Of a stretch of DNA of 47,214 nucleotides, positions 1-47,214 are shown piece by piece (positions within the stretch are counted from its first letter, which is position 1; every line of letters starts with the position of its first letter). The notes beneath the pieces are model-generated. The model was not told the DNA's origin and did no database searches. It saw only the letters and a list, made by a program, of their open reading frames with translations. Origin of the DNA: Catajapyx aquilonaris. Lineage: Eukaryota. The position numbers were made by a program, and so were the translations under genes. The stretch lies in assembly GCA_000934665.2 (NCBI GenBank), contig KZ538795.1:1-47214 (forward strand). Direction: 5' to 3'.

Positions 1-1192
1 TCAAGGAGCGATACTATCTATCCAATACCAAGATGGCTTCTAAAGGAACGTGCGATGGTATCCTCATTTCCCGTCTATGGATATAATACGTCTATGGGAG
101 GAGCAGTGGTGGGGTCCACAGGTAGTAGGCGTGGCAGAACTATTGTGATGGTGTTAGGAGGGGGTTCACAGGTAGTAGGAGCGGATAGGACTTGCCGTAC
201 CTAGGCCTGGCTCTCGCCACGCTGGTCTCGCCCCCGTGTCCGGCGTCGGCCCCGTACTCGGCCTGGCCGCCGCCACGCTGGTATCGCCTCCGTTTCCGCG
301 TTGGTCCCCTCTCTTCAGTCCGGACCCGCCACTCCCCCAGGGTACCGTGCCGCTCCCATGTTCCGTGGCCGCCAATAAAGTGTGAAGGTCTGCCCGCTCG
401 GGGTCCAGTAACCGCCTCGTCGCCAGTGTAATGGCCACGAACCGGGGAAGGGGTTGGAATCACAAGACTGGTGTCTAGCGCTAACACTGTATTACGATCT
501 ACATCTGCACCCATTAACGGGTGGCACCAGACTGAGGCCGAGGCCTGTACACACTCTCTGAGGCCCCCCTCGGTGGTGCCCTCTGGATGGTTCCTCCTTC
601 TCCCCCCCAGGGTATACAGCAGCAACCACATGTGCTTCAGAGACGGAGTGGTTAGCATCTCAGCCTTCCAAGTTCAATCCTCGGAGACTTTCATGTGGGT
701 AGAGTTTCAGTGGGTTCTCATTGCATTTGTGTTGATGGTCCTTCAGTTGTGTCTCCTTTGGAAGCCATATTTGGGCCTCGCTCTCTCAGACAATGAAGGG
801 CAGCCATGACTTTCAGCTGCTACAAGTTACTTAATATGGTGTAATAATTCCTGTAAAACAGCTGCATTATGCAGAGCATGTGCATTCAGGATCATGATAT
901 GCAGGACCCTGTAGGCATGAGCCCATTCATCATTGTAATGAACACTGAAAATATTTTTGATTGCTCCATGATGTAGCTTCAAGATATTAAGCAACTAAGC
1001 AATTACTAAGCACTGCAGAAATCTCTGTTGAAACCTTGCACAACGAAATGTATGGAGGGATGAAGACTATGACAATATTATTTTGAATTGTGGTTTTCTA
1101 CAAATGTATTATGCAAGTACACAAATGGTCTTGCATTTGTGATCATCTTCTGCAGCACCTCTAATCAACTCTTGTGACCTTCTCATCTACAG

Positions 1193-4100
1193 GTGGAGAT
1201 CCAGGACAACGAGGGTGCTGGAATGAATCCTGGGACACCAGAAGCTGCCACGAAACATGGGAATGGCGCGCATAAGGTACAGCAGCTGCATGATAAACCA
1301 TGCTGTGTCGGTCATCTTCAGACTCCGCCTAGTGCTGGGTACAAAATCTGTGTTGGTCAAGGAAAGTGGGGAGGGAGTAACCGATTGTGTGGGAGTTACC
1401 GGGGGGCAGCACATGGCGTGACTGATCCGGTCAGAATTTTCCTGTGGCCATTGTAAAGATACCACAGTTTGTGGGCGTAGTACTTTATTTACGCAAAGAG
1501 GAAAATAATAATGGTGTACGTTTTTGCTCAGGTGGAAGTGCAGCGTGGAACAAGGCAATCCAAACTGAAGGCTCGACAGAAGATGTCGGAAATGAGGGAA
1601 AGTCACTCTGGAAGGGGCAGCGACTCTGACAGTGGAGACAGCAGTGAAGACATAGCGATTTCTGACCTTGAGAGCGAGTCATCTGAGGATGAGGTTCGTA
1701 CTTATTTGAGGACTGGTGCTGATCAAGGCTGTTTCAGGTGTTGGTTCTCAAATCTCAGTCTGCAGGAGGCCATGAGTGGCCTCCACACGGGCTGAAAATT
1801 ATTTTAAAGCCGATTTACTATACCTGTTTTCCCGATTAATACCACTGCAGTCAGTAGCGTTGTGGTGATGGCCGTCTCCCTCTTCTGCTTCAATCTGTCC
1901 CCTTTCTCGTATTTTCCCTACTTGTGGTTTTCAATTACGGGACGCCAAAACAACTTTGTAACACATCTGGACTTCGAGTCTAAGGGACATGTTGATGAAA
2001 TGGGAGGCAGGGCTGATGAATTGTCCTAAGGGCCTTCCTTGCTAATATTGGAATGTGGCTTCTTGTATGCGGTGTAATGGCAGTTAACATTAAGTTTATT
2101 AATTAATAGATATACTGTAGATATGGATACCATGTATACAGGGTGAATCTGAACTCAGTGCCCCGACGTATATGACTGCCTTCCTAGCCACCAGAGGATC
2201 GATTTAAGTATAGGAGTCATTATGTCTGGGCAGCCTCATTACGGAGATAATTGGCCGCAAACATGTAGTACAAAATATCCTGTCGGTTAGGCCACCCATC
2301 GAACCCTCCCCCAGTCAGAAGGCTCTGGAAGGTCTGGGGGCGGGACTTTGTTGGTTTGTTGCCCACAGGTGGTAAGGCCTCTTTGGCTAGTTACACCAGA
2401 AAATTCTATTTAAAAGGCAGAAGGAGCGATTAGGCAAAAATCGCTAAAGAGTGTATCTCAGTAATGAGGCTGCCCAGACATAATGACTCCTATACTTAAA
2501 TCGATCCTCTGGTGGCTAGGAAGACAGTCATATACGTCGGGGCACTGAGTTCAGATTCACCCTGTAGAGAAAGAGACTCGCTGTGCTACAATTTGAAAAT
2601 ACGAGGAGTGATCAAAAAGTAAGGTCTCCAAGGCTGTAACCTTTATTCTGTATGAACACAAATGACGAAACTTACAGGGTACATGAGGACAATGGACATC
2701 TACTTTTCTACATAGTTTCCACACCGAAGAACGCACTTGTCCCATCGCCAGACCAGTTTCGCAATCCCTTCCCAATAGAAAGGGGTGCCCTGTTGACAGC
2801 ATCAGTCACGCAGCCTTCTTCATCTCATCGTCGCTTCGGAAATGCTGACCTGCCATGTCTGCTGTCAGGGCTCAGAATAAGTGATAGTCTGTGAGGGCTA
2901 GGTCGGGACTATAGGGTGTGTGAGGAAGAACTTCCCAGTCATATCCATTCAGCAAAGCCATGGTGTCCCTCAATGTGTGCGGACGGGTGTTGTCGTGGAG
3001 AAGGATGACCCCAGCAGTGAGCAATCCTGGTCGTTTCCACCTGATGGCCTTCTGCAACTTCGCCAGGGTCACTGCGCTCCGAATTGATAGTCGCAACTTC
3101 CAGGATTGCTCACTGCTGGGGTCATCCTTCTCCACAACAACGCCCGTCCGGACACATCGAGGGACACCATGGCTTTGCTGAATGGAAAGGACTGGGAAGT
3201 TCTTCCTCACACACCCTATAGTCCCGACCTAGCCCTCACAGACTATCACTTATTCAGAGCCCTGAAAGCAGACATGGCAGGTCAGCATTTCCGAAGCGAC
3301 GATGAGGTGAAGAAGGCTGCGTGGCTGATGCTGTCAACAGGGCACCCCTTTCTATTGGGAAGGGATTGAGAAACTGGTCTGGCGATGGGACAAGTGCGTT
3401 CTTCGGTGTGGAAACTATGTAGTAAAGTAGATGTCCATTGTCCTCATGTACCCTGTAAGTTTCGTCATTTGTGTTCATACAGAATAAAGGTTACAGCCTT
3501 GGAGACCTTACTTTTTGATCACTCCTCGTATATATCTTATGCTCAACTCGAAATTTCCTGTGGTAGTAAAAATCTTAATCGCGATTTTCAACTAAACAGT
3601 TGCAGTTATCAAAAGATTGACAAGTACGTATTTATTCTTAACCTCACTCTCTTTAACATTTGTTTGAGTTGTCTTTTGATAATCTTATCTGCTTAAAACA
3701 TGAAGTAAGATTACCTGTTTTTGCTGCCATTTTTCCGAGATGGCAGCTGGAATATGTAGGGGAAATCATGGCGAGAAGTTGATTTCCAAACTTGTGATCA
3801 CGGCCATAGAATATCAGGTCTGGTCACTCCCACCCACCCCCCGGCCGACGTGTTTTGCAGAAGTTGCTCACTTGAGAGCGCCATGAGACATTTCAGTCTC
3901 CGGTCAAGTGGCGACCCTACCGGACTAGGCTGAACTTTATAGGTACAAAACTAAAAAAAGGGAAGCGCTACATTGGTGGACCCAACATGGGCGCCGGCGG
4001 CCATTTTGGGCCCGCATGTAGCGCTTCCCATTTGTGCCTATAAAGTTCAGCGTTAGTCCGGTAGGGTCGCCAGTTAAACGGAGGCTGAAATGTCTCATGG

Positions 4101-5912
4101 CGCTCTCAAGTGAGCATCTTCTGCAAAACGCGTCAGCAGGTGATAACAGCAGAAAGTAGTATGACTGTCTGGGGGCTGCTTCTGATCATGCTTAGCAACT
4201 TCCCGCAAACATATCCAAATTAACATGAAATATTAGCGAAAGATATTTCTTGAACAATACAGGGCGTCCGCAATGAACCTCCTTAGTTTCAACTTGCTGC
4301 CATATTTTCCATTCAATTTTTCATGTTTTTCTGCAAACTCGGGGAAGAAAGGACATGGGGGGTAAGGATGGGGATTTTTAGGGGAGGAGACACGGGTTCA
4401 TGTGCAATGTCGGAATGTGCAGTGTTCCAGGAGGTTAGGTTGCCGGAGGCCTCCAAGGCGTGGGTCAGAGACCCGGTCCTGAGGCAGGCGAAGGGGAACG
4501 CCCAGGCGGGGATCGAACCCGGGACCTTTCACTCAGTAAGCCGAGACGCTGCCAACTCGGCCACCACGCCTCCCCGCTTAGAACCAGTTATTACCCATAG
4601 ACACTGAATTTGTTTGTTTATTGTTGAATGAACCACCGAATACATCATGTAGGGAACAGCACATGCCATATTGGATTGACATTTTGTGCAAGGATAGGGG
4701 TTGCAGGATTTGACTATAACGTTGACCTCATTGACCAATTGTGGTGGTGGTCTCTTTCAGACTTATTTGACCAAGGTCAATTCAGGACCTGCCACAAGTC
4801 CAGCATCAGAAGACGGGGATGGAAGCATGGAGTTATCAGGCAGTGGGTTGAGTTCCCCTTCCAGAACGACCTCTGATTCACGATCAGGACTGACAGGAAA
4901 AGAAGCTAATGGCACTGCAACCCATACAGCAGTGAGGCCACAAGAAAGCACTGGAAAGGGGCAGTGTGAATGCTCCACTTGTGGGAAGAGGGACCGTGAT
5001 CCCATCAATATTACCCACCCAAAGAAGCCCCACAAGAAACCCCTTCAGTTTACCTGCACCATATGTGACAGGAAGTATGCATCGCTACGTAACCTGGAGC
5101 GCCACAATTATCAAATCCACGGGAAAGGAGCAGGAAAGAAATATCAGTGTCACCTGTGTCGCAGATATTACCGCAGTGAAAAGTACCTCACATATCACAG
5201 GCTGCGCATTCACACACGGGATTTGCCATACAAATGTGACACTTGTGAGAAGAGATATCAATGGCGTAGTGAATTAATGGCCCACAAGCGGACGCACAGT
5301 GGAGACCGTGCCTTTGCCTGCAACTTGTGTGACAAGACATATATAACTCGAAGTGGATTACATACTCACAAAATATACATGCACAATAAGCAACCAGCGA
5401 AACAGTGCCAGTGCCCCTCGTGTCCCGAAAAATTTGCAAATAGAGTTGCCTTGATGTATCACAAGAAGAAACATCAGAGGCAGAACAAGCCAAACCAATG
5501 TGCCACTTGCGGGAAGCAGTTCCATTCTTTGAACCAATTAGCAGCACACGAGCGAAGCCACACTTCAGAACGTCCCTATGCCTGCAAATTATGTGACAAG
5601 ACGTATGCCACCCGTGCAGGCTTATATATGCACAATAAAAGAGTCCACACGGAGGGTGGAGGTAAGACAATCCAGTGCAACTTGTGTCCCAAAAAATTTG
5701 CAGTGAAAACCCACCTAACAATTCACATGCGCACTCACACTGGGGAGAAGCCCTTTTCCTGTCTCGTGTGTGGAAAGGGCTTTACTCAGAAGCACCACGT
5801 GGAGCAGCACATGCGCTTCCACATTGGGGAGAGGCCCTTTGTGTGCACCGTGTGCAAGAAGGACTTTCTCATGAAGCACCACCTCCAGAGCCACATGAAG
5901 GCACTGCATTGA
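1193..5912 (+). CDS. C2H2 zinc-finger protein, copy 1 (5' incomplete); exons 1193-1276, 1532-1693, 4761-5912
   Basis: Terminal exon encodes 10 C2H2 fingers with TGEKPF/HTSERPY-type linkers. Acceptor tctctttcag at 4760 is in frame. Two upstream phase-0 exons flanked by AG/GT (VEIQDNEG...HK; VEVQRG...SESSEDE) splice in frame. No start codon identified. Confidence 0.8.
2139..2564. mobile_element. Tc1/mariner-type MITE, ~111-bp TIRs, TA target duplication
   Basis: TA|CAGGGTGAATCTGAACTCAG... at 2139 and its reverse complement ...CAGATTCACCCTG|TA at 2564. Arms 2139-2249 and 2454-2564 are near-identical. Confidence 0.9.
2602..3528. mobile_element. Mariner-derived foldback element made of two inverted 3' halves of a D34D transposase gene
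   Basis: TA|CGAGGAGTGATCAAAAAGTAAGG terminus at both ends. Arms are 2602-3030 and 3100-3528. Each encodes LLH(D/N)N.RP...WEVLPHTPYSPDLALTDYHLF, and the left arm has 34 residues between the two catalytic Asp. Confidence 0.92.
3847..4134. mobile_element. Palindromic (foldback) MITE; second copy starts at 47085
   Basis: gacgtgttttgcagaag...cttctgcaaaacgcgtc is an imperfect palindrome over its whole length, and the same left arm recurs at 47085-47214. Confidence 0.8.
4340..4575 (-). mobile_element. tRNA-derived SINE
   Basis: Minus strand head has A box TGGCCGAGTTGG and B box GGTTCGATCCC (4501-4575), followed by a non-tRNA body. 3' boundary is approximate. Confidence 0.6.
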
Positions 5913-8179
5913 TCACCTTCTGATGAAGCAGCAACAATACAGAGTCTTCTCTGATCAGGAGGTTGGAATGGGGAAGAATTTATTGATGGAGTAGTCAGCA
6001 CTGCTCCGAACTCGGCGTGAGGTTTGGTCCACCTGCACTTTTAAAAAAAATCGAGGTGATATGGTGGAACTGACAACAGGAATGACACACTGCCGCACAG
6101 TGGTACCCCTACCCTGCTTTCATGGACAAAAATCTGAAACTCGTTCGATCTTCGTGAAACTCAGCATATTTATGTTGTTGGAGGTCCACATGCCATTTTT
6201 AGTGGTTTGAGCCCAATATGGACAATTTCGACAAGTTACATACCTGTGTGATAGATACGCACTTATAGGAACAGGTCGAATTTTCAGAGGTATGCCTATG
6301 CAGTCTTTTAAAACTTGAACATAGTTTGAAATTGTCTCTGTGGATGTAAACTGACTTGCCAGTGGAGTATCTGTGGATCAGAAAGAGTTCTTATTTTAAA
6401 ATTAGTGTATGAATGGAACCATATAAACTTGCAGGGACGTTGGTCATCTCCGCGAGTTGATATGGTTCAATAGTTGAGTGGAAAAATGTAAGGGATGTCA
6501 ACATGGCAAAGCACCGCATCCAGTAGCGATACGGCAGTGTTTTATTTTCGCTGGCGGATGTGACGTCATGATTGGGCGCAAACATGGGAGGCCTCGTGAG
6601 CTCTAACCAGGCATCGTAGAGCAATAGAACCTTCACTTCCTTGTACTGGTTTTTAAGAAGGAATCTCGCTACTTGCCGCTTGTGCACCATTTACCGACCA
6701 CCCTGCATATCCAAGCTATCCACCTTACTTGCAGACTCTCTGAGAGACCGGAAAATTTGTGTCATGACATCAGGCATGCACTTTCCTCTTGAAGTGCAGT
6801 ACATTTCGATGCTGATTAAAATAATAATGATATTGGAGAGAAAATAGGTCAAATATTAAAGGACAGCTTTTTATGCCAATGTTTTTGCAAACAGCAATCA
6901 TACTGCAACAAAGTTTCCAGGCCTGACGCAGGTCTCTCCAGTGATGTATGTTGCAACAACAGCATGATGATAATGAAAGTGTTGTTTTTCTGACCATATC
7001 TTGTTGCATTTGAATATTGCACCTCTGGTCAAGTATTCAGTACTCTCCTGTGCATATCAAACATGTACAGACGATCACCCGACAAGAATAACATGAATCA
7101 GAACTTTATTCCAAAAATGAACATGGCATGAAAATAGCACTGAGCGATTACCACCTCTCCATGCACATGAGAAAAATGGCTTGCAAGGCAGGGGTCTGAC
7201 CATTGCTATGAATGAATCGCAGCCCAATGTTTTATTCCGGGGGACGTGGAAATGGCAAACTCTTATGACAGAGGCCAGGGATTACTTGCATATACGAGTA
7301 AATGCCAGTAATCCCTGCAGAGGGATACAAGATCTTGTGTGGCTCGATGACAGATGCTGCAATATGGTTGGAAACTATGTTGATAAAAATTTTTTAATGC
7401 TCAGGCATTCAGGTGTATACCTAGTACTGTAATAAAAATCCTGGATGGAAGGCATCGTTGTTTCTCTAATAAGAACAGAATGCAAGTTACTTTCTGGTCG
7501 ACCAAATTGAATTACTCTTTGGGTGAAGTAGTTTAGTTGATTTTTTTTCCTGAAAGCATTGGCTTGACAGTGTCACATCGGACACAGACTGGTGATGGGC
7601 ACATATCTTGTCAGGCCTGTTGGATCCCACTTCCACTTATCAAAACCTTTGAAGCAAGCTGGATGTGTAGAGTTGGGCAACACAACACATGAATGAATAT
7701 AGCTGCCAACATTATTTTTTATATTTTAATTTGTGTAGTACTTTGGCCAAATTGTGCACCTAAATGTATCTGTCAAATCAGAGAAGTTGGCATGTAAACC
7801 TAACTGGATCTCAGCAGTAGGGAAATGTGAAATGAAGTTGCCTAAAGAGCCAGAGCCAGAGAAAAACAGTTTGGTCCTATATGCATATGTCTACCTTGTT
7901 GTGGCCCGGCCTCCCTTCCCTTCTGTACTTAAGACGGAAAAAAAATTTATTTGGAGCATTTTGGAGAACGTCCCACGAGGGTGTCCCATTTTGGTGGTTG
8001 TCACCATTTGGCAACATGAGTTGCGAGATAGGCTACTGTTGTTTGTTTGTTTGTTGTTGGAGCAAGCACCAAATTAATAGAGAACAGCACATTCCAAATT
8101 CGATTGACATTTTGTGCGAGACTACAGATTACGGGATTTGATTATAACATTGACCCACTGTGGTTGTTTTCTTTTCCAG

Positions 8180-9304
8180 CCTTGCTTGGCCGAGGTCAAT
8201 TCAGGTCAAGCGACAAGTCCAGCATCAGAAGACGGGGATGGAAGCATGGAGTTATCAGGCAGTGGGTTGGGTTCCCGTTGCAGAACCACCTCTGATTCAC
8301 GGTCGGGACTGACAGGGAAAGAAGCTAATGGCACTGCAACCTATACAGCAGAGAGGCCACAAGAATGCACTGGGATGAGGGACCATGATCCCATCAATAT
8401 TACCCGGCCAAAGAAGGGCAACAAGAAACCCCTTCAGTTGACCTGCACCATATGTGACAGGGAGTATGCATCGCTACGTAGCCTGGAGCGCCACAATTAT
8501 CAAATCCACGGGAAGGGAGCAGGAAGGAAATATCAGTGTCACCTGTGTCGCAGATATTACCGCAGTGAAAGGTACCTCACATATCACAGGCTGCGCATTC
8601 ACAAGCGGGATTTGCCATACAAATGTGACATTTGTGACAAGAGATATCAATGGCGTTGTGAATTAAAGACCCACAAGCGGATGCACAGTGGAGACCGTGC
8701 CTTTGCCTGCAACTTGTGTGACAAGACATATATAACTCGAAGTGGATTACATACTCACAAAATATACATGCACAATAAGCAACCAGCCAAGCAGTGCCAG
8801 TGCCCCTCGTGTCCCGAAAAATTTACAAATATAATTGCCTTGAAGTATCACGTGAAGAAACATCAGAGGCGGCAGAACAAGCCAAACCAATGTGCCACTT
8901 GCGGGAAGCAGTTCCATTATTCGAACCAATTAGCAGCACACGAGCGAAGCCACACTTCAGAACGTCCCTATGCCTGCAAATTATGTGAGAAGACATATGC
9001 CACCTGTTCAGGCTTATATACACACAATAAAAGAGTCCACACGGAGGGTGGAGGTAAGACAATCCAGTGCGACTTGTGTCCCACAAAATTTGTATCGAAA
9101 TCCAAACTAACAGTTCACATGCGCACTCACACTGGGGAGAAGCCCTTTTCCTGTCTCGTGTGTGGAAAGGGCTTTACTATGAAGCACCACGTGGAGCAGC
9201 ACATGCGCTTCCACATTGGGGAGAGGCCCTTTGTGTGCACCGTGTGCAAGAAGGACTTTCTCATGAAGCACCACCTCCAGAGCCACATGAAGGCACTGCA
9301 TTGA
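8180..9304 (+). CDS. C2H2 zinc-finger terminal exon, copy 2 (10 fingers)
   Basis: Intact ORF highly similar to 4761-5912, with an in-frame phase-0 acceptor cttttccag at 8179. Flanking intron and 3' sequence are also duplicated (~8040-9440 vs ~4610-6040). Confidence 0.85.
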   Translation, partial: PCLAEVNSGQATSPASEDGDGSMELSGSGLGSRCRTTSDSRSGLTGKEANGTATYTAERPQECTGMRDHDPINITRPKKGNKKPLQLTCTICDREYASLRSLERHNYQIHGKGAGRKYQCHLCRRYYRSERYLTYHRLRIHKRDLPYKCDICDKRYQWRCELKTHKRMHSGDRAFACNLCDKTYITRSGLHTHKIYMHNKQPAKQCQCPSCPEKFTNIIALKYHVKKHQRRQNKPNQCATCGKQFHYSNQLAAHERSHTSERPYACKLCEKTYATCSGLYTHNKRVHTEGGGKTIQCDLCPTKFVSKSKLTVHMRTHTGEKPFSCLVCGKGFTMKHHVEQHMRFHIGERPFVCTVCKKDFLMKHHLQSHMKALH

Positions 9305-10858
9305 TCACATTCTGATGAAGCAGCAACAATACAGAGTCTTCTCTGATCAGGAGGCTGGAACAGGGAAGAATTGTCGATGGAGTAGAGTAGTCAACACTGG
9401 TCCGAACTCGAACTTGGCATAAGGTTGGGTCCACCTGCACTGGCAATGGTGGCCTCGAATGTTTGCCTCGTAGTGACTTATCAACAACTCTCTTCCATGT
9501 AGAGAACACCCCCCATAGAGACAGTGGCTGCAATGGTTAGCTGGAAGACTACCTAGCAAAGAGGCTTTTCCAGCACCCAACATTCCATAGTTGCAAACTT
9601 TGTGCAAATTTTGTTAAACATGACATTCGTCATATTTTATCAAGGGCATCTACTAAGACTGAAACTTTTTGTACGTGTAAGTTAGTTTATGTACGTCCAA
9701 GCTTACATGTTTTCCTGGGAACATGTGGCGGAATTATGAAATGTCTTTGTTTCCTTATTATTACTTCACATATATTAGTCGTGTGGCAATAAAGTTATTT
9801 CATATCGATAAAATCGGAATCGGCAGTTGTGTACTCATACATTGCGAGCTTACAGCCTCTCTCAAATGACTTCTTAGGTGCCCAACTGGTAGAGCCCAGA
9901 TGCATTAACATCTAACAACCTTTAGGCCCTGAAGAAAGACATTGTCTTTCGACAGAGAAGGTAATTTTTCCTAATGACCAAAATGAACTTGCTGCAGTAA
10001 TAATGCCGTAATGCTGCTTTGCAATGTCTGATCAGCATGTCAAGTCATGCAAACGCCTGAGGCTAGACACAAGCGAAGAAGAGCACTTACCTGGTACTAC
10101 TGATTGTGTTCAAAGTGCCAATTTTATGTAATTTTTTGACATCGCCAGAAAAACCTTAGCTTATTTGCTCGCATTTTCCTAGAGCGAAGACCTAGAAAGC
10201 CACTTGCTTTGCTCGCTTGTTCCTAGGCCTGCAGCATGTGGTGGCGGAGGCCATTATTATTGTTGATCACTTTGGACGGGCTGGTGGTAATTTCATTTTC
10301 ATGCATTTCCAGGTTTTCCTTAATTTGATCGCTTGGATGTAATCCTTAAAACGGGTATGCTGTACCAGCAGCTTGTACTCACTTCTGGAGTTTTCTCAGA
10401 AACATTAACGGCCAGCCTCTTTTGTACTTTGGTGTAAATACTAATATTATTTGAACAAGATCGCAAAATTCTAATGACGGAACAGAATAATCGAATTCTG
10501 CGCTGGTCCCCTTGGCCTCCAGTCAGCACACTGTATATTATCTACTACCTAGAAATAAGATCAAATCTAGTGGCAGAGGATATCGTATCTTGATGTGCAA
10601 ATATTATTGGGTGTTTGAACTGGTATGCTACGTCGTGCAACCGGCTTAAATGAGCCACTGGAGAGGGAGAGATTCGTTCCGAACCCGATTTGCAACATTC
10701 CGCGGTGTCAGTTCTCTTCTTCAATTTCCAACAGTGTCAAGTGAGTTTGGGGAGTTGTCGTGTTGGACCAGATCAGGGCAAACAAAAGGGAGGGGGTGGA
10801 TATGGAAGGTGGGGGTCGGGGTCTGAGCTGTCACTGGGGCCAGGAAGGCACGTTTCAG

Positions 10859-11866
10859 ATGAGAGTGCACTGCCTGATGGACACAGTCTTCTGAACGGCC
10901 CTAGGAGGGACAAGGTCAAGGCGGAGGATGAGGGAAGGAGAGGAGGATTTGGAGGGGCCACTGCCAGATGAGGAACTCACTGCCCAGCTGAACCACCAGA
11001 CGAGTTCATCTTGGCAGGCCATCATCAAGGAGGAGGGATGGGGCAGGTCAGAGCCTGGCATTACATGCTTTCATTACAAACCATAATGTCATGCCACTTT
11101 TTGTGTAGGTGGACAGTAGCCCAAGACAATCAAACCTGGAGGCTCAGGAGGAGAGGGAATAAACGAGGGAACAGCAAGTTGGGGGAGGCAGCACTAGTCA
11201 TCTGAGTATGAGATACGCAGCATAATATTATACGTATCAACACGGAGGAAATTCTGCTCATTTAGCTGAAGTTTCCCAATAAGCTGGAGGTACAGCTTGA
11301 CTCGAAAGTCAGGATTCATAGGTATAGTAATTTGCAGTATTGTTGGTTTCCAGTTGCGGAAACTCTAAAACGGCCAACTGTGCCAACTCATCCTTTTCTG
11401 ACTGTCAACAAACTGCTAGTTGGCACAACTGGAAACCAACAATACAATCCAGCAGTATTACTCATGTACCCTGACTTTCGAGTCACCCTGCTGTATATCA
11501 TTTGGAAGCATTCAAAAGTAATATAACACCGAATAGCACATAATTATTTTTTGCTCAGTTTCGCGCCTGGCTCCATATTTTTTGGCCAAGATATGTCATG
11601 GCTCCTCATCAAGGTGGCACACCCGTTTAGCGCCACTGCCTTCTGATGACCTGATCGGGTACAGTGACTGGGAGCGGTTACATTAAGTGACTTGGAGGGA
11701 AAAATTGCTAACCACTATAGATGTATCTATTGGGACTTTGCCCAATGAAATGTAATGAATTCTATGGTGATATATTTTTTTCTAATGTGGTTTCTACAAA
11801 AAACTAATGTATTATGCAAGTACGGTCTTGCATTTGTGATAATCTTGTGCAGCGCCTCTAATCAAC
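10859..11866 (+). pseudogene. Degraded 5' exons/intron of a further paralog of the zinc-finger gene
   Basis: 11109-11212 aligns to exon 1532-1693 but has an in-frame TAA and a lost donor (AT for GT). 11720-11866 resembles intron 1020-1170. 10859-11046 is an AG/GT-flanked segment with VKAED and IKEEG in different frames. Confidence 0.55.
11293..11490. mobile_element. Small Tc1/mariner-type MITE
   Basis: TIRs cagcttgactcgaaagtcagg / cctgactttcgagtcaccctg, plus an internal inverted pair gtattgttggtttccagttg / caactggaaaccaacaatac. Confidence 0.65.
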
Positions 11867-11891
11867 TGAATGAAGTAGAATCCTTTATAGG

Positions 11892-12610: not shown

Positions 12611-15600
12611 CTATATACTTGGGGCATCTGGTACTGCATCTGGTACAGCCTCTTCTGGCACCGCTTCTGGAACAGCCTCTTCTGGCACCGCCTCTGGAAC
12701 AGCCTCTTCTGGCACCGCCTCTGGAACAGCCTCTTCTGGCACTGCCTCTGGAACAGCCTCTTCTGGCACAGCTTCTGGTACAGCCTCCTCTGGCACGGCT
12801 TCAGGTACCACCTCTTCTGGCACAGCTTCTGGTACAACCTCTTCTGGCACGGCTTCTGGTACAGCAGCCTCTTCTGGTACGGCTTCTAGCACGGCTTCTG
12901 GTACCGCCTCTGGCACAGCCTCTGGTACATCTACTGGTAAGTCGGTTGGTACGGTGACTGGTAAGTCTGCAGGTGCAGTCACTGGTAAGTCTGGTACATC
13001 GGGTACAGTGACTGGGAGGTCAGGTACAGTTACTGGAAGGTCGGGTACAGTTACTGGTTCATCGGGTACGGTGACTGGGAGGTCGGGTACTGTTACTGGA
13101 AGGTCGGGTACAGTTACTGGGAGCTTTGGTACAGTTACTGGAAGCTCTGGTACGTCTACAGGGAGGTCTGGTACGTCCACTGGAATATCAGGTACGTCTA
13201 CAGGGAGGTCTGGTACGTCTACAGGGAGGTCCGGTACGTCCACTGGAAGATCCGGTACGTCTACAGGGAGGTCTGGTACGTCTACAGGGAGGTCCGGTAC
13301 GTCCACTGGAAGATCCGGTACGTCTACAGGGAGGCCTGGTACGTCTACAGGAAGGTCCGGTACAGTTACTGGAAGGTCTGGTACGTCCACAGGAAGATCC
13401 GGTACAGTTACTGGAACGTCCGGTATGGTTACTGGAAGGTCCGGTACAGTTACTGGTAAGGTAGGTGCGGTTACTGGTAAGTCTGGTAATGTCCCGAGTG
13501 TCATTCCATCGGGGAACGTGAAAGGCAGGTTGTTCAGAAGGGCTCTGCAGGCTTCCTGGATGCACTGAAGGCTTCTCTGTGATTATGTAACAACATTATA
13601 ATTAGGCACAGTTGCAATGCACGCCCCGAATCTGACTAATAAGATATATGCGCAAGTGCAGAATATAATTACCGTACCTCTGCCATTGCTTCACTGACAC
13701 AGATCAGAGCAATTTCGGCCTTCTGGCAACTCGCTTCTCTACCTGAAGACATCAGACCCCGCATGATTAGGAGTGAGCTAACTTTCGAAGCACATGGTGT
13801 ACATGTCGTTTTACTTTAATATCGAGAATAAGTATAGACGCGCTTGACACGGCCGTATAGTGCCTGCGCGTCATCTCGACCGCGTGTGGCGACGAATAAC
13901 GCGTCCATATAATAACTGAACTCTCACCATCCGGTTCAGGCTTCTTCTTGAGACATTCCTGCACGTTGTTCCAGACCGACATGTCCATTCCGCCAGCAAA
14001 GAACCGCGTCTCCAGGTCGGATTTGATCGACGAAATTTGGAAGTCTCCTCCCTGGTCCATCTATTATTTAAAAAAAAAAATATTAATCATGGCCCAACAA
14101 TATAGGATGACCAAAAATTCGAGTGGAAATGCGACACTCTCGACTCACCATGTTCATTTCTTTCCACATGCACAGAACCAGGCACTGGTGGTGGGTGGGG
14201 AATAGATAGCAGCAGATGAGTTAATTAATAAAAATTAAAAATTACGCGCAAATTTATGTGATACCTGTTTACAAGGGCAGACGCGATCGAGACGCGGTCT
14301 TAATTAATGATTTGACATCAATTGGACTCACTGCATGACAAAATTGGGAAGGGCTTTCGTAGTGGTAGACCGCATGCGGCAGCGGTAGGGGCACGCTGCA
14401 CCAGCATAACCCGTGACCTAACCTTCCTTCCCGGCGGATATACGCCTATCCTTCAGCGGATACACGCCTATAGGAAAGTATAGGTAAAAGTACGGGGTCT
14501 CCCTAAAGCGTAGCCCAGAATTGCGCCTCACATCACTCAGATCACTGTGACCACGTCTCGATCGCGTCTGCCCCTCTTCGTGCATGCAATTGAATTAGTG
14601 TGTCAGATTGCAATTTTTGGATCTACGCTGCTGATTTTAAGCAGTTCCTTTGGCACAGAAACTTGTTATCCAATGTATTAGCTGGCTATACTAATATTAG
14701 GTATAGCGTGGACCAGCCTCGGTGCTTGACATTATTATGGAGCCTTCGCAAATTTGACCTGTTTGACCGAATGGCAATATAGTTATTACTCGATCCACGG
14801 CTTCCTTCATGAACTTTTCGTCTTCCTGCTGTGCGCCTGCGCGTCCGAAGCATGCGGTGACGTCATCCTTCCTGCACATGGCGCCCACTATGCAGGGCAT
14901 GGTCAGTCCCTCCTTCTGGCAACACGTCTCCAGGGCTCGTATCGCACCCTCAGTCACCATCTTGCAACCCTGAGGCAATGAGGAAGACCGAGCCGGAATA
15001 ATATACAGCATGCGCGCGCATGGACGCGGCAAGGGCGTAGAAAACGCATGAGAACGCCGCTGAACTCACCCTGGCCACCTCGTGGAAGTGACGGTCCACG
15101 CATTCTTTCGGCCACCCTGGGAAATCCTCGTATTCATCTGCAGGCTCGTTGATTGTTATATAAACCACATTATTTAAAAACACTTAAGTGATATTAATTA
15201 TTATGTTATCTAGGAATATAAGGTGTTACTCTGCCAAGAACTGTCCACGAGGATTAATGTATTTGCCATTTTTATCTCAGAGGCTCATGAGGTTTGACTT
15301 ATATATGACATAATTATCTTACATACTGTTTGATCATTATTTACAATCACGGTTAAATTTACATTATCTGTGTACAAGTGTAATGATTATGCGGACGTTT
15401 CATGACTTTCGGAGCGATTCTGTATTTTCCAGTTCAGGTTTTGAAGATTGTATGAATCACTGTGAAACTACATACGTACCGCCACACATCACAGGTACAG
15501 CACCCTGCAAGATGAGAAAATATGACGTGTTATGTTCACACGAGCGAGCTTCGCTGTCCTTTGGGTGGGTCGTTGCTTCTGGGATCCACCAATCGCAATA

Positions 15601-16156: not shown

Positions 16157-17742
16157 TCATCCAACTTTGGGCAAGCTGGCTGGAGGATCAGGCAAATCTG
16201 GCTGGGGAACATCGGGAACTTGGGGAACATCAGGAGGATTGGGGACTTCGGGAAGGTTAGAAGCGTCTGGTAGAGGAACTTCGGGGACATCAGGGACTGC
16301 TGGTACTTCAGGGATACCTTCAGGGACTTCGGGGACTTCAGGCAGACCTTCGGGGACTTCTGGTACTTCAGGGAGACCTTCAGGGACTTCTGGTACTTCA
16401 GGGAGACCTTCGGGGACTTCTGGTACACCTTCGGGGAGGTCAGGAACTGTGACTCCTTCAGGAAGACCTTCAGGGATCCCATCGGGAAGTGAGACGGAAT
16501 CGAATGAAGGAGGGGTGAATCCCCCTGGGAAGGTGAATCCCTCGGGAAGAGAGTCTCCGAGGTCTGGAAGATCCACGATTGCCTGACAGGCGTCCGAGAT
16601 GCACTTTTCATTCCTCTGGAAAAGACCGAATCTTGATTGTCTGACGTCCACCAAAAGACAAAGACACCAGAGACTTACTTCAGCAACCGCGTCCGTGCAG
16701 CACATGAGTCCAATCTCAGCCAACTGGCAGGCTTCTCCTCGAGCTAGAAAGTACAGTGTGTGTGTGTGGTCATTTACAAAGGATACTTGGAGCAAACTGG
16801 ACACATGGACTTACTGTCCGATGGGTCCTTGGGCGTGGTGTCGATGCAGTTCTGGACACCATCCCAATCCGATTGTCCCATTTCCCCTCCGAAGAACCTC
16901 TGGGCCATGTCCTGCCTCACGCTGTCCCCAACTATCGAGCCATCTTCGGCCATCTGCAAAGTGACAGTGACCGCAACATTATTTTATGCCGGCAGAAGTT
17001 GGACACGAGCTGCACTCACCAATCCCATGCGTCTCCACATGCACTCGACGAGACACTGAAGATGTTAAAGATCATATGTATAGTTAATGGTAAAAGTTTG
17101 TGTCCTGGTCGACCTCATTTTACACTCATCGAATGGCTGTCTTGTAAGTGACTGACCTGATCTCTGGCTGCACCTATGAAGGCCTCATCTTCCTGCTCGA
17201 CCTCTGACCTTCCCAAGCAGGCAGTGACGTCACCCTTTCTGGCCATGGCCTCGGTTAAACAGGGCATGCTCAGACCCTTCTCCTCGCAGCACGAATCCAG
17301 GGCCGTCGCTGCCCCATCCGTCACCATCTGGCAACCCTGCGCAGGAAAGGTGACCACCAAGGGTCAAAAGGTCACTCTGGATTTGCACTCTCAGCAGCAG
17401 TCTTTTTGGCGACGAAGAAACTCACCCTCATCACGTGATGGAAGAATTTGTCCACGCACTTCTTGGGCATATTCGGAAATTCAGGGTATGCATCTGCTCG
17501 ATCGTTACAAATGCATTAAGTAATTAAGTGATTGAATTAGAAAATAATAATAATAACAATGACAATAATGATAATACCTTCGGATTGTCCCAGCACAGTC
17601 ATCTGCAATTATTTAGAAAGTCGTTAATATTCTTCCTACCAACACCATTTGACAGGGACAGCAGTATAATTATGATGGGAAAAGTTACCAGCAGGCCAAA
17701 CGCTGTGAGGAGAAGCAGCCGGATGAAGAGCGTGGCCATCAT
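16157..17742 (-). CDS. Secreted Cys-rich (OBP-like?) protein B with Pro/Glu repeat tail; exons 17742-17689, 17602-17578, 17493-17426, 17336-17157, 16953-16815, 16743-16679, 16615-16157 (~329 aa)
   Basis: Signal-peptide-like MMATLFIRLLLLTAFGLLMTVLG, all GT-AG in frame, 12 Cys including CQLAEIGLMC and CISDAC, and a (PEGLPEVPEV)n tail. Confidence 0.85.
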
Positions 17743-24634: not shown

Positions 24635-25636
24635 CTACTCCTTGACCAGCACCTCGTATTCATCATACCGGTGCTCTTCACCTGCGTAGGGGATGTAGCA
24701 TGTCTTGTGACTCGGATGCAGCTGTGAGAAACATGGATTAATTATTATCAATTGGATCTGAGACTCATTGTTTTGAGGCCAACAGTTGAATCTTCCGACC
24801 TTATACCGCATTGTATCACACACATAGTGGAAAGTGTCTGGACACTGATGGACTGACCTTTCCGCAGACCAGGTTCCCGTCGTGTTCAGCCCTGGCCACG
24901 AAGAGCCTCTCCCCGTCGCGGGTACGGCCTCCCTCGACGGCCCCCGACGGAATGTGCCCGTGACATGCCGACACCCACTCGTAACTACTGCTGCCAGTTA
25001 CCAGCACCTACAGCACAGGTGATGGATTAATCACTATGATCCATAACATTAAAGCCCCTACCCTATATAAGGATGTGTATAGGACCATAGAGAAGATCGG
25101 GCACTTCCAGACGTCGTATCGGGTCAGGAGTTGGCTCGTTGGAAAGCTCTCGTCAACAATTGGTCAGGGAAAAATCACGAGAATTGCGAATTTCCCCGCC
25201 GTTTTCGAGCTATGGCCAAATTTAAGATTTTGCACCTTATTTGCCCGGATCCTCCGCCAGACGAGCGCTCCCATCGCCTGAGCCCCCCACTCCCCCTACT
25301 CAATCAACGCGCGGGGATGCCAATTAAGAGGTAAATGAGCTCATCGCGTGCACAGTCATGTCATGTACACAGTACCATCCCTCTTCTCACCTCGTAGGAA
25401 TATTTCTTGTGTTCTCCTCCTCCCCACGAGACGTAGCAGGTGCCGTGGCACGGGTGGACCTTCCCCGGCACGAGGTCCCCCTCGTGGTATGCCCTCCCCA
25501 CGTAGTACTGGTCATCATCTCCGCCGTCCTCTCCTCCGATCACCGCGTCCTCAGGGACGTCTCCTCCTGCTGAAGGGACCCACTCGTCACCATGGTGGTG
25601 ATGGTGGTGGTGGTGATGGTGATGGCGATGGCTCAT
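24635..25636 (-). CDS. DM9-repeat (DUF3421/natterin-like) protein with N-terminal poly-His; exons 25636-25391, 25007-24858, 24721-24635 (160 aa)
   Basis: Two repeats of W...G.(V/I)P..AV.GG....(Y/F)V.RA.H.G.LV.GK.HP.H.TCY...G.EH....YEVLV, with phase-0 GT-AG introns. Confidence 0.9.
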
Positions 25637-27622
25637 TGCTGGTATTAACACAGTGACTGCTCGCGGTGTTCTTGCTCCTTTGCTGTTAGGACGGACGGTG
25701 AAGTACGACAATGCGGGACAATACGTGTATATACATGTCACTGTAACAAAAGCATTAAATGACTGTGGCCTGCTGTGGCCTATCTACTCACCTGGCCCCT
25801 CTAATTTCTAAAATATTGACCTGTCGTGTCGGGTGCTCCTTGACCAAATGATGGGGGTCCACTCACGGGGATCGGCTTTTTATTTCCTTGTATCAGGAAA
25901 ACTGTAGGCTATAGTTGCCTTATCATAAATCGAGTTATCTCATTTGCCTGAAGCAATCCACATGTGTACCNCCCCGCAAATGAAAAGCAAAAAAATACAA
26001 CACGTTCCCGGAAATAATCAGGAGGAAAATGCACCCGAGACAAGATCAGTTCTTGGAATGATACAGGCAGGATGATTGACTATTATTGACATCAAGACGG
26101 GCAAGGACCTCATGTTTACACACTGCTGTACTGTACGTGTGTGCATGGTGAATTATACGCAATGTAACACTGGCAGTTCTTCAGATCTTACAGTGTCGTG
26201 TTGCCTATTGCATCATTATGGCCGTCTTGATGTAAATATTAGTCCGATGATAATAATTATGTATACTCTGCCTATCATTCCAAGAACTGAAGGGCTTGCC
26301 TATAAGGTCATCAGTTTTCCTCCTGATTACAATAAGTGAAGCCTCTTTGTTTTTTTGGTCAATTTTGGGGGGTCAAAACAACACAGTCGTGTCAAAAATG
26401 ATCGAATATGAGTTATGATGACTGCGTCGAAGTAGTTTATAAAAATCTAATCTAGAAAAAAAATATTAGCAGATATGTCAGTCTTTCCGAGACGAATATT
26501 TATACTGTACGTAGAACAACAGCTGCTCTAAAATGATGTTATGTCTACCATTATAAGGGAGTAGCCAGGGAGGGTTACAATGAGGTTTCTTCAATGCTGT
26601 TTCATTATTAGTCACTGTCACCATCCTGGTGACTGTCAAACTCACTCGTCAGTCACGGATGCCACTGACGGACCATGAACTCATAAGAGCAGTGGGTGGG
26701 AAGATGTGTGTAGGAGTCAATGAGTTCATTCTCTGATAATGACATTGAAATCGTGAATTTTTATGGAGCATAACGAAAAGTGGAACATTTTGCATTATTC
26801 TTCCACCTTTTACATAAGAACAGCATAACAACGGCATAGTTACTTTGTAAATATCTCCTCCGATTCCTTTGCAGGATGGTGCGGCCATCACACTATGTAG
26901 ATACACATTGCTTCACTTACCATGTGCTTGATACAATCTCTTACACCAACTAGGTGGTGCACCACCCAAGTCCAACTTGCCCAGCTTTGGAGCACACCTT
27001 TATTGAGAGCTGTCTCACGACTGCGGGACATTTTTTTGGTGTAATAAGAGGAGCAAACTGCATCTCAAAGGACATGTTTAATGCTTGCCATTAATTCCAT
27101 GGAAATCCACCCTTCCCGCCCTAAAAAAAAACATAAGTTAAAAAAAAGGGGGGAAAGGTGGAGAGAAATACACATCTTATGTAACCCCGACTAGAACCCA
27201 AAAGCACAGCTTCGGGCGAAGAAAACAATGAACAAAGGGAGTCACCCAAAACTGGCCAACCAATCGGATTAAGCATCTCTCTCTCTCGACACGCGGACTT
27301 GCACAAACCAGGGATGGCTCAATATTGGTAATAATACATAATAAGAGGATTAGTGTTAATCATACTGTAATTAAATCACTCCTGCGACAAAGCACCTAAC
27401 TCGCTACTTTCGAACCGAAAGGGCAGCAGTTAAGCTGGGCAATCAAACATCCATGCATAATAGTTGTATGTGTGTATATACTTTTTTCCATGATAATAAT
27501 TCCGCCCTTCCCTATTTTAAAAAGACAAAAAAAAAAAAAAATTGCATGTAAACCACCACCACCACTGGTACAAAAAAAGGTAGTCCCCCTCCCACATTTC
27601 GATGTATCTCCCAGTGTGGCGA

Positions 27623-31325: not shown

Positions 31326-32146
31326 ATGCCGTACGGCGGAAGATCCCGCAGGATGATAGCCCTCTACATGCTCTGGCTCATTGAGGTATAAACCCCCGCA
31401 ACAATGAGCTCATAATACTTGGTTGCAGTAACATTTCCATTCGAATGTAGCGTGAGACTAACACTCCGGTCCAATCTACTAGAACAACGCGGCCAAAATT
31501 GCCAGAATTCATGTAGTTTAGGTAGATCTGGCCATCAGGCTTGCTAATTGTTGCTCATGAGCACCGCAGCAGTTCCGATTAACATTTTCGTAATGTGCCA
31601 GTATTCACGGCTGGTAACCTAACAGCCATCAGCATGTTTTTAACTGCGGGAATAATAATTGTGCCGTTACAGAGTGGCTTCTTCGATTCAGACAGCGAGT
31701 CGGACTGGACCGAGAGCGACGATGGGACTGACGAGGCAGCGTCGTCGAGCGATGAGGAGCCGCAGGAAGAGGGGGAGTCGGCAGGAACATCGGAGACACC
31801 GAACGGTAATGTGGAGTCGGCAGTGGTGATAAAGCAGGAGGAGATTGTGGTGCATGAGGGGAACATTAAGGAGCTGCTGGAGGAAGAAGAGGAAGCGGCG
31901 GCCACAATAGAAGTCAGGGTGAAGCAGGAGCCTGAGGAGTATGGCGAGGAGGAGCCGATGGTGGCAGACCCAGCGTCAGTTGCGGATCCAGTGAATGACC
32001 CACTGGCATCCGGATCCTCCCAGAGGAAGAGTCCGCTGAAGGCGGGCCTCCAGTGCCAGGTATGCAGCAAGACATGCCCGACCAGGGTGGCCCTCAGGGT
32101 GCACCTGGCCACCCACACGTACGCCAACAAGAAGGTGGCGCGATGA
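31326..32146 (+). CDS. Small acidic protein with one C-terminal C2H2 finger; exons 31326-31385, 31673-32146 (~177 aa)
   Basis: MPYGGRSRRMIALYMLWLIE|SGFFDSDSESD... spliced in phase 0. Contains IKQE/VKQE motifs and CQVCSKTCPTRVALRVHLATH, with GC3-rich codons. First exon is less certain. Confidence 0.65.
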
Positions 32147-35282: not shown

Positions 35283-36446
35283 ATGGCGGTCGACGGGGCT
35301 GAGATGGGCGGGGAAGAGAAGAAGGCGGTGTCGGCCCAGGGGTCGCCCCGGGGCGGACAGGTGGCGGCACCCAGGGCGGCCCACACCACAGGAGAAGCAG
35401 CCACGTACGCCTCTCTCTTCGTGTCGTCACTCTTTGTCAACAAGGTGGTGCTCGCACCCGGCAATTAATTATGGCCAATTCAATTATTACGATATGTTTC
35501 TCTTTATGAACAGTACGTATTGTCTGGACTTGGCTTCACGTATCCGACGGTGTTCCAAGGTTGGCAAATGCTTGTTGGGGCAGCGGTGTTCAAGTCGCTG
35601 ACCTTCAAGTGCTGCGCGTCTCGCGACCTGGGTCTGCCCCTGGTGGTGCCCACCATCGGCTGGAGGTCCTTCCTGGCTCACTCCCTGATGAGGGGGATCC
35701 TCTTCGCCTGCGCAGCGGTTGCAGGGTCCAAGGCGCTCTCGGGGGTGCCTGTCAGCTGCGTGGTTGCCGCCTCAAACTCCGTCCGAGCCGCACTGTACAT
35801 CCTGGAAAGGTGGGGCAGGTGGACCCCTGGGCCGGCACTGGCAGCCATCGCCACGCTCGCTACATGCGCATACGCCCTGACCATGGACGGGCTTCCCATG
35901 GGCGAACGGCCACTCTTCTGGCTCCTCACATTTGCAGTGCTGCACTCCGCCGACCTGCTCTACACCCAGCATGTCCTCTGCCCCTGGGCTGGACCCGGGC
36001 CGTTAGTGCACCTGTACTATGCGTACATCACCAGCGTGGTGCTGCTGGCTCCCTGCAGCCTGTACCTAGAGGAGGCTTTCCTGGCTCTCAGCTTCAAGGC
36101 AGAGAGACAGATGGTCTTCTATGCCATGTGCACCCTTAGTGGAGCCCTAGGGGCGGCCCTGGGGCTCTGGGAATGCGGGGGGATCAGTCTCTGGCAGGAG
36201 CAGGGCTGGCTGGACCCCAGGTGGACCCAGTTCGGGGCCAGGTTTGCTGCCTGGAGCCTCTCGGTTGGAATCGGGTATTGGTATCAGGGGCGGCCCGTGG
36301 GCGGGTTCACCACGTCCCTGCCCCTGGTGGCCAACCTGCTGCTAGGAGCCAACGTGATAGCCAGCTTTTGGGTCCCTTCTTATCCACCCCCAGTACTGGA
36401 TGTAGCCAAGCCACGGCTTCCATCCGCTGCACCATTTGTCACATGA
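35283..36446 (+). CDS. TMEM241: TMEM241/SLC35D4-like nucleotide-sugar transporter family membrane protein; exons 35283-35444, 35514-36446
   Basis: FVNK|YVLSGLGFTYPTVFQGWQ, AGSKALS and multiple hydrophobic segments. Confidence 0.85.
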
Positions 36447-44600: not shown

Positions 44601-47084
44601 ACGTATTTAACTGAGCGTTAAGAGCTATAACTGGAGGTTAACACGAATCGAGGGCAAGTTACTAAATCAGTGTTGGAGAAACCTATCGTAAACTTGAATG
44701 TGTAAATGATAGTTGAAGAGGGAATAATGGTAAAAGTGTGGACAGAGGTTAGTTGTCGTCCATGTTGGGTCCTCTCCAAGTGTACGTTCCATGTGTTTGG
44801 CGGGGGCTTCCAGGAATTCCCTTCCTCTCCTCCTCCTCCCCCTCCTCCTCCTCCTTTCATCTTGGTTGGAACCCCCCCTGGCATGGCAGGCAGCTCCGAT
44901 TGCAACCCTGAGCTGAAACTGCGTTGAGAGAGAGCGGAAGGGAACTCGGTCGAGGGAGGGGGGGGGGGTTGGGATGGAGAGGAGGGGGGGATGGGGGAAA
45001 CGGCCTTCTCAAAGGGGGAAGGGGGAGGGAGGGATGGAGGGGGAGAAAAGAGAGGCCGACTGCCCGGCGCCTCCAAGAGAGTACAGGGAGGGAGGGAATG
45101 CCCAGAAATAATATTTCAAAAAAAAAAAAAAAGATTTGCGAATGCCTGATATTGCGTGCCAAAATCTACCCACGCACTCATTATTCACCAATGGTTGGAT
45201 CAACAGCGATGCATATTGCACTGCATACTATACTGATCTAATTGTTGCAAATGATGCGCCACTCATCGTCACTGGGGGGAATCCCCGACCTGTCCCACTC
45301 TGTTGGTCATCTCCGTCCGTCGCAAGTTATGACGTCATTTGCACGGACTTGCCCTGGAGCTTGAAGTTCGAGCAAGATGCCAACAGCTGGAGGAGCAATT
45401 ATTATCCAATCGGGAAGGTCCACACCTTGCATTCAGTGCGGCTCGTAATTTAGTGCGCACCTGTTTCACCCACCTGTCCTGTTGGCACCATGAGAAAAGG
45501 GAGAATTATTCAGGCCCGAATAGAAATTACGAAATAAATAAATAAATATGTAGCTACATACCAGTACTGTATAAAGCAGAAAGTTGGTACAGTATGTCCG
45601 GGCTACCTAACCCACTTCCTGACTACTGAGAGTGCTGAAACTTTGCACACCCATGTCATATACACTTATTTCGTTTATCAATCCCCGTGCGCGGAACGCC
45701 CCCCTCTAGTAAATTAATAAATAATAAACCAATTAGAAGCTCGTAACAATCACTGTTTTGCGGCAACTTGTTATACATTTTGACCAGTGTTACATCACAT
45801 GTCGTGTGTCTCATAGGCGATTAATGCGCGCAAAGTTCGAAATCGCCTATTTTGTTACGGTGTTTCTTGGGCCCCTCTGGCTATACAAATTGGTCAGTTT
45901 TTGGCAGGTCCACCATTACTGGATCACCCCTGGAGGTCACTTTGGTCAGCAGGGGGTCTGTTCCGAGGCGAACGGTGACCGGTCGTAATTATGGAGAAAG
46001 GTACCGTTTTTGAGGGGATACACTTTTCGGGGGTTTGACCCAGAGAGCTGAAGAGAAAGAGCAAGATAGTGTATACTGTAAAGCTGTGGGGTGTTCAAAT
46101 TCATCGCTGTCGTATTCAGAATTATTTGCATCGGTGGTTATTTTGGCAATAAGTGGTGCAGAAGCTGCGCAGGGACAGGAAAAATCAGCCTGCAACGAAG
46201 AATTTGGCACGGGTCATTGTCTATTTATTACAAAGTCATACTGCTACATCATCGGCTAATATTTTGGATAGCCCGTCTGAAAGTATAGCTGGATTTGGTA
46301 TAGGAATGAGTAGTGCGTCAAAGACGCAACGGGCTGCGTCGTAATGCGATGGACACACACATGCGACCCGTCTGAAGGAAGATGAACTTTTTTTTTGTTG
46401 TTTTCCTTCGGGTGACGGAAATAGAAAGGTACAGTGACGCACCTGCGATACCCGGAACGTTGCGGTGAATCGATAGCCCCCAGTCTGGCCACCCCCACCT
46501 CCACCCACAGNCCCCCCCCCGCCCTCTCTCTCTCTCTCTCTCTCTGCCACACTGATAGGGATGATGCGTATCTCTCACCTTGGAAGTAGCCACCAGCACC
46601 TAAGAATAAATAATACCTCTGAGGCAGGTGCAACCCCCGAGCAACATTTGCCAATCTGAAACAGGAGGTTGAATAATAATTGTGTAGTACCCCCGAAGCG
46701 ATTCCAGTAAAAATCGTGTCGGTCGGCGGAAAACACTGTTCCTAGAAGGAATCCTTTTGCGGAGGCGGTCAGTTCAAGTCGTACCGGTACTCTTTCTTTC
46801 ATCATTCAGGAAAATACACACACGTTTCTGATTCAGCCAGATCGGGCCCTCGATCTCACAATCCGCGACTCCCCCCGTAAACATGTTGACTCATCACCTA
46901 GGTCACAGTAGTTACCGTAGCTCTCACTTTCCCCGTCCAGCAATTAGAGAACAGAGTAGTATATAGCGCCCTGGTGGACTTTGTCCGCGCGATGACTCAT
47001 CACCAGCGTGCATGTAGTACTGCTTAAGCTTTGAGAACGGCAGGAGCAGCCCCCGGACACTTTTACTACATTCTGATGTTATCA

Positions 47085-47214
47085 GGGGCGTTTTGCAGAA
47101 GGTGCTCAATTGAGAGCGCCATGAGACATTTCACTCTCCGGATAAGTGGCGAGTGGCGACCCTACCGGACTAGGCTGAACTTTATAGGTACAAAAGGGAA
47201 GAGCTACATTGGGG
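47085..47214. mobile_element. Left arm of the foldback MITE family seen at 3847-4134 (cut by window end)
   Basis: gttttgcagaag.tgctca.ttgagagcgccatgagacatttca...ccctaccggactaggctgaactttataggtacaaaa is shared with 3852-3950. Confidence 0.8.

Follow-up and report, generated by a model that had tools for sequence, protein, structure and literature searches.

What has driven apart two tandem and closely similar zinc-finger exons whose differences gather in the helices that would read DNA? The question is raised by contig KZ538795.1 of Catajapyx aquilonaris (GenBank assembly GCA_000934665.2), of which we analysed positions 1 to 47,214, a stretch referred to below as the window. It carries two terminal exons, A and B, both with open frames and with ten C2H2 fingers apiece of the form C-x2-C-x12-H-x3/4-H (Pfam zf-C2H2, E=1e-30 and 2e-28), lying in a duplicated block (4609-6039 versus 8042-9441) of 88.6% identity. 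We consider it likely that the pair has been shaped by diversifying selection on DNA recognition. The parts of the duplicated region are these:

4761..5912, + strand: terminal exon copy A, in phase 0 behind an AG acceptor (4759-4760); it has a 96-codon Ser/Gly-rich segment, 10 C2H2 fingers (5055-5909) and a stop.
8180..9304, + strand: terminal exon copy B, in phase 0 behind an AG acceptor (8178-8179) that has a pyrimidine tract; it has 10 C2H2 fingers (8444-9301) and a stop.
4609..4760, + strand: duplicated intron end of A; counterpart 8042-8179, 27 of 138 sites differing.
5913..6039, + strand: duplicated 3′ flank of A; counterpart 9305-9441, 11 of 126 sites differing.
6040..8041, no strand assigned: spacer between A and B, without a copy of the candidate upstream exons described below.
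4971..5033, + strand: degenerate finger-like motif, C-x2-C-x11-H-x4-H, preceding finger 1 of A.

Across the 286 array codons counted from the DNA alignment, from which 12 codons at two indels were dropped, the contact codons (-1, +2, +3, and +6 in the customary numbering of helix positions) are changed at 13 of 40 places and the rest of the array at 18 of 246. Within that rest, helix positions -2, +1, and +5 are changed at 7 of 30, other finger residues at 8 of 95, linkers at 2 of 51 (plus one Arg insertion), and zinc-ligand and hydrophobic core residues at 1 of 70. The contact class stands apart from the rest of the array (p=4e-5) and from its non-core part (p=5e-4), these class contrasts, like the helix-only p=7e-4 given below, having been computed on a protein-guided alignment. 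The changes are unevenly spread over the site classes (p=3e-8), and of the 330 ways to choose four positions 13 do as well as the contact set. The most altered helix position is +2, in 5 of the 10 fingers. Read from -1 to +6, the A and B helices are SLRNLER/SLRSLER, SEKYLTY/SERYLTY, and WRSELMA/WRCELKT in fingers 1 to 3, TRSGLHT in both copies of finger 4, NRVALMY/NIIALKY, SLNQLAA/YSNQLAA, TRAGLYM/TCSGLYT, VKTHLTI/SKSKLTV, and QKHHVEQ/MKHHVEQ in fingers 5 to 9, and MKHHLQS in both copies of finger 10.

A preliminary description of this DNA had named 13 contact substitutions, all of which are present at the fingers and positions it gave, and had called fingers 4 and 10 unchanged, which their identical protein in A and B bears out. 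Its further statement that divergence fell mainly at contact positions is true of the whole helix, which holds 20 of the 31 array amino-acid changes, but not of the contact positions alone, with 13 of the 31. The near identity that it saw in scaffold and linkers likewise describes the core and linker classes counted above but not the segment before the fingers, in which 16 of 85 codons differ beside a 30-nt indel. That in-frame deletion takes from B both Cys of the finger-like motif at 4971-5033, for which we found no Pfam match, and both His are substituted, leaving none of its four ligands. All A/B indels are in frame. One of the nine linkers is TGEKP and several others are long or atypical; an 84-bp repeat reaches only 1.9 copies at 76% match (in the region of fingers 8-10), the fingers being otherwise diverse.

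Further variants of the exon occur in read contigs. Contigs of four runs (X1, X2, and X4 from one sample, X5 from another study) were compared with window positions 1-10400, and the letter differences given here rest on 40 of the 524 rows of the difference table. A contig found in X1 and X5 has at least eight differences from A in fingers 7-8, those listed all being non-synonymous. They include the helix changes +1 R>P, +2 A>T, +3 G>A, and +6 M>T, a pair of residues lying between the histidines, and a residue ahead of finger 8. An X2 contig has at least five letters in common with it, but is like A at +2, +3, and +6. Finger 7 takes at least four sequence forms between the window and sample S1, and residues +2, +3, and +6 tell the two extra forms apart. 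Among the X5 records, record 31 shows 34 differences from B where A shows 22, record 30 has B's 30-nt deletion yet A's letter at both places listed, record 32 matches B's own 3′ flank exactly, and record 26 matches A's 3′ end with three differences. The runs also contain contigs that differ from parts of the spacer by about 3-8% (records 5, 15, and 27-29), and a contig over 9114-9354 is covered 3.6-5.2 times as deeply as three X1 contigs of low depth. The family probably comprises four to five copies, a figure that is only an estimate because depth is not copy number, and some of the variants could be alleles. One contig joins 9371 to 5980, that is, B's 3′ end to A's flank, which suggests that mosaic copies exist; A and B themselves share identical runs of 105 and 128 nt. 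Elsewhere in the spacer, contigs of all four runs join across 6052-6518, a probable insertion.

A codon maximum-likelihood model was fitted to the single A/B pair, and the ratio of nonsynonymous to synonymous divergence (dN/dS, or omega) at contact codons was obtained under different dS clocks. Contact dN is 0.20 (16.5 changes over 94 sites), and the core shows one change in 172 sites. Contact omega is 9.0 on the array dS of 0.024 (p=7e-6; accepted grid 4-20) and 4.15 on the whole-exon dS of 0.050 (p=4e-4; grid 2-8); the strict -1/+3/+6 set gives 8.4 and 3.9 on the same two clocks. Fixed outside clocks of 0.08, 0.093 (the 3′ flank), and 0.11 return 2.6, 2.2, and 1.9 (p=0.0015, 0.007, and 0.03). 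Helix codons tested by themselves reject neutrality (p=7e-4; exact versions of the test give p=0.013-0.04), and this comparison controls for conversion because helix codons share any conversion tract. When each codon is counted as one event, the excess stands against array silent sites (p=0.0015) and exon silent sites (p=0.015). CpG hypermutation was rejected as a cause, since CpG-type transitions account for 1 of the 17 nucleotide changes at contact codons; transversions account for 9. The diversifying selection put forward in the preliminary description is thus upheld by the site-class dN/dS of this pair with clocks up to 0.11 (dN/dS 1.9-9, p<=0.03) and by the helix-only test, but the excess loses significance with the two fastest clocks, 0.14 and 0.23.

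We infer from these data that the two arrays bind DNA with altered specificity. Duplication of the array exon would have given young, intact paralogous terminal exons in a small lineage-specific C2H2 family, with zinc ligands and core presumably kept by purifying selection and recognition-helix residues (-1, +2, +3, and +6, also +1 and +5) apparently changing faster than silent sites. The copies would therefore probably read different DNA, with fingers 4 and 10 kept, and exchange between copies probably holds the array alike at silent sites.

As the specific driver of such selection, an arms race with transposons, which the preliminary description had raised, is possible, although we hold it tentatively. 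The signature in A/B is the one described for vertebrate poly-zinc-finger expansions (PMC2604467) and for zebrafish FiNZ genes (bioRxiv 10.1101/2022.11.29.518450), published work being cited here and below for the excerpted portions of each source, and enrichment of transposable element (TE) motifs has been predicted for octopus, rice weevil, and sea urchin too (bioRxiv 10.1101/2022.11.29.518450). The window also contains a decayed mariner and an inverted-repeat element of very high abundance. Against this driver, no repressor domain was found in the exons and candidate exons scanned; in Drosophila, ZAD-ZNF selection acts chiefly in linkers and a pure TE model is not favoured by the authors in the excerpted text (PMC7655104), and the corresponding part of a study of hemipteran ZF271-like genes gives no correlation with repeat content (PMC6444547). 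A satellite or some other genetic conflict as the target is a fainter possibility, and ordinary regulation or a protein partner takes the share left by these two.

Selection of any kind would be unnecessary if the helices had drifted neutrally after duplication and conversion, mosaic ancestry, or silent-site constraint had depressed finger dS, inflating dN/dS. We regard such relaxed selection as unlikely, and the evidence that weighs against diversifying selection bears chiefly on it. The clock is uneven: 0.23 in the intron, 0.14 for N-terminal dS, 0.11 for the proportion of silent differences in linkers, 0.09 in the 3′ flank, 0.03 for array dS, and 0.01 in fingers only. With the N-terminal clock contact omega falls to 1.45 (p=0.18), and with the intron clock to 0.87 (p=0.59); contact dN of 0.20 lies near the intron distance (two-sided p=0.73). 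Silent changes are found at 1.5 of 148 sites in the fingers against 4 of 36 in the linkers (p=0.014, post hoc), a shortage that conversion alone does not explain and that counts against diversifying selection. Silent divergence in the array is far under that of the intron (p=2e-6) and of N-terminal silent sites (p=0.01), and exchange would fit the 105- and 128-nt identical runs and the contig joining 9371 to 5980. The one-event-per-codon count gives p=0.16 against the 3′ flank; a comparison with pooled non-finger sites gives p=0.04-0.07, or 0.19-0.26 once the intron is added; the chance of at most one silent change among 17 contact changes is 0.05-0.11; and contact positions are indistinguishable from -2/+1/+5 (p=0.44). 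Four contact codons differ by two bases. In finger 9 (5778-5801 and 9170-9193), the B codon at -1 equals that of finger 10 (5862-5885), so the Q/M double change there may be one templated copying event within the array. The result also rests on one complete pair. The scaffold class has an omega of 1.04 under the array clock, which is therefore probably too slow; for that reason, and because contigs of other copies are about 3-8% off the spacer, we take a realistic contact dN/dS to be about 2-4.

Several observations are hard to reconcile with drift and exchange. None of the codon changes made by the 22 nucleotide differences in the helices is purely silent, and conversion is blind to the difference between silent and replacement changes within the helix. 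The 3′ flank and the spacers of other copies are diverged by about 0.07-0.09, a range at which omega still exceeds 1. As for silent-site constraint, an antisense open reading frame (ORF) was considered as its source and rejected, since it is not conserved (197 versus 116 codons). We retain diversifying selection on DNA recognition as the likelier account of A and B.

Two candidate exons lie upstream of A, and a decayed relative lies downstream of B:

1193..1276, + strand: candidate upstream coding exon, predicted; AG..GT, phase 0/0, 28 codons.
1532..1693, + strand: candidate upstream acidic/Ser-rich coding exon, predicted; AG..GT, phase 0/0, 54 codons.
10860..11867, + strand: decayed 5′ half of a related gene, with an acidic piece that is frameshifted and has its VKAE and IKEE in two frames.

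The reading frame of both candidate exons, neither of which has a Pfam match, fits A and B alike. No match to KRAB, ZAD, BTB, or SET was found in the exons and candidate exons scanned, and the first exon or exons of the gene probably lie upstream of the window. Candidate poly(A) signals (AATAAA) stand downstream of each copy, at 7431 for A and 9788 for B. Among the rows listed for X5 no splice joint is seen, which tells neither for nor against expression. Because the 2-kb spacer holds no second set of the 1193-1276 and 1532-1693 exons, B would be an alternative last exon, or have a start of its own that is not seen here, or be an orphan. We give predicted splicing of B to the 1193-1693 exons just short of an even chance, and this arrangement is the part of the locus most deserving of testing. 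That B is a decaying orphan whose changes are functionless is very unlikely. The missing 5′ exons, the loss of the finger-like motif from B, and the decayed 5′ half downstream speak for it; in that half, 11103-11192 is a stop-containing version of the 1532 exon (66%) and 11703-11867 repeats intron 1001-1170 (73%). Against it, B's acceptor, frame, and stop are all intact, its single core change compares with 5-15 expected under neutrality (P=0.035 to 3e-6), and its changes are grouped by site class.

It is hardly credible that the assembly has set alleles of a single locus in tandem as A and B. It does have N gaps elsewhere, and none of the compared contigs spans both copies; but the flanks differ beyond the duplicated block, finger 7 has its four or more forms, and the second sample matches both B's 3′ flank and, with three differences, A's 3′ end.

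The broadest construction of the locus would be one arthropod gene whose common 5′ effector part serves a growing cassette of 10-finger alternative last exons, with positive selection retuning these against young mobile elements. It seems to us improbable; if true, it would unite splicing of the fruitless type and an arms race of the KRAB type in a group with little published finger selection.

Other features of the window were also noted. At 2600-3529 is a decayed mariner with matching terminal inverted repeats, an ORF piece of which matches Mos1 and SETMAR in the Protein Data Bank (PDB; E ~1e-12). A short element at 2137-2566 has 113-bp inverted arms that are 98% identical and a summed depth of 80,000-120,000 in three DNA runs, from which it appears very abundant and probably young. 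A second inverted-repeat element family has two copies about 81-83% alike (3852-4184 and 47041-47212). Two related low-complexity frames on the minus strand (12611-13582 and 16157-16810) carry acidic Pro/Val-rich repeats (PDLPVDV, PEAVPEEA, and PEVPEGL) without a Pfam match, and related Cys-rich pieces lie at 14818-14972 and 17185-17339. An acidic ORF at 31583-32146 has the motifs IKQE and VKQE and, ahead of its stop, one C2H2 finger; it may be a truncated zinc-finger gene. Pieces of a DM9-repeat gene, one after a His run, lie at 24635-25783 (minus strand), and a long membrane-protein ORF at 35469-36446 has no Pfam match at E 0.001, its Atlas neighbours being nucleotide-sugar/SLC35-type transporters. 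Neighbouring genes are ordinary eukaryotic ones (CAP, 3HCDH, GSKIP, ubiquitin-like, and DM9).

Protein searches (at near, longer, and shorter lengths, among 50% representatives, and in the Atlas) and a metagenome search returned no close relative or orthologue of A/B. Among the matches listed, the best full-length proteins are generic finger proteins of about 30-41% identity, 38% being the best among the 50% representatives. Four metagenome loci, sharing only one generic 8-residue pattern, were rejected as relatives; L001:4102-5310 and L002:984-2192 are an unrelated eukaryote-type 19-finger array that is 99.5% identical across two metagenome contigs. With no close relative in these searches and extra variants in the read contigs, A and B belong to a lineage-specific multi-copy family. 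At the level of search results, the literature yielded no account of the A/B locus and none of alternative last exons that are young and carry 10 fingers.

Among known systems, PRDM9 arrays concentrate their variation on helix positions, as A/B do. The comparison includes a match to PDB 5v3g. The A/B fingers differ from PRDM9 in not forming a homogeneous 84-bp minisatellite, and no PR/SET domain was seen in the pieces scanned. A shared 5′ part with alternative finger exons is the plan of fruitless and also of lola and mod(mdg4). For fruitless, finger-exon duplication is described and positive selection is cited for the fruA exon (PMC4197022), and its duplication-derived alternative 3′ finger exons are a possible likeness to A/B, which differ in having no BTB match in the pieces scanned, in cassettes of 10 fingers each that are about 95% identical, and in splicing that is predicted only. 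Insect ZAD-ZNF proteins resemble A/B in turning over fast and in having their finger array C-terminal to a disordered linker, but Kasinathan et al. place their selection mostly in the linker, not the fingers (PMC7655104), and no ZAD match was found among the window pieces scanned. In bugs, tandem ZF271-like clusters are described, without the repeat correlation, as noted above (PMC6444547).

An invertebrate arms race has already been proposed in print, since Wells et al., besides helix selection in zebrafish FiNZ clades, report that contact sites have high entropy and that TE binding is predicted in octopus, rice weevil, and sea urchin (bioRxiv 10.1101/2022.11.29.518450); for cephalopods the excerpted text of another source terms it an open question (PMC12513265). 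The FiNZ genes of cyprinids lack KRAB, to which the A/B pieces scanned gave no match either; they are, like A/B, young paralogues in tandem, and selection is enriched at the residues that contact bases, as is likely for A/B. They differ in having a head domain that is defined, copies in the hundreds, and TE repression supported by knockdown, A/B being known from sequence alone (bioRxiv 10.1101/2022.11.29.518450). Helix-focused positive selection is textbook in vertebrate families, where Emerson and Thomas find it at -1, +3, and +6 and less at +2 and +5, and in the excerpted portion of their report it went undetected in Drosophila and Anopheles expansions (PMC2604467). If the host is an arthropod, A/B would be a compact case of matched arrays (four to five copies, with fingers 4 and 10 identical in A/B) for direct tests of specificity and TE targeting. 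Recent paralogy, a surplus of helix replacement changes, and a conserved core are what A/B have in common with vertebrate poly-zinc-finger and KRAB-ZNF genes (PMC2604467), from which they depart in lacking a KRAB match in the pieces scanned, in having TGEKP at one of nine linkers, and in changing most at +2 rather than at -1, +3, and +6. The divergence of the A and B helices extends this known vertebrate zinc-finger pattern and overturns none.

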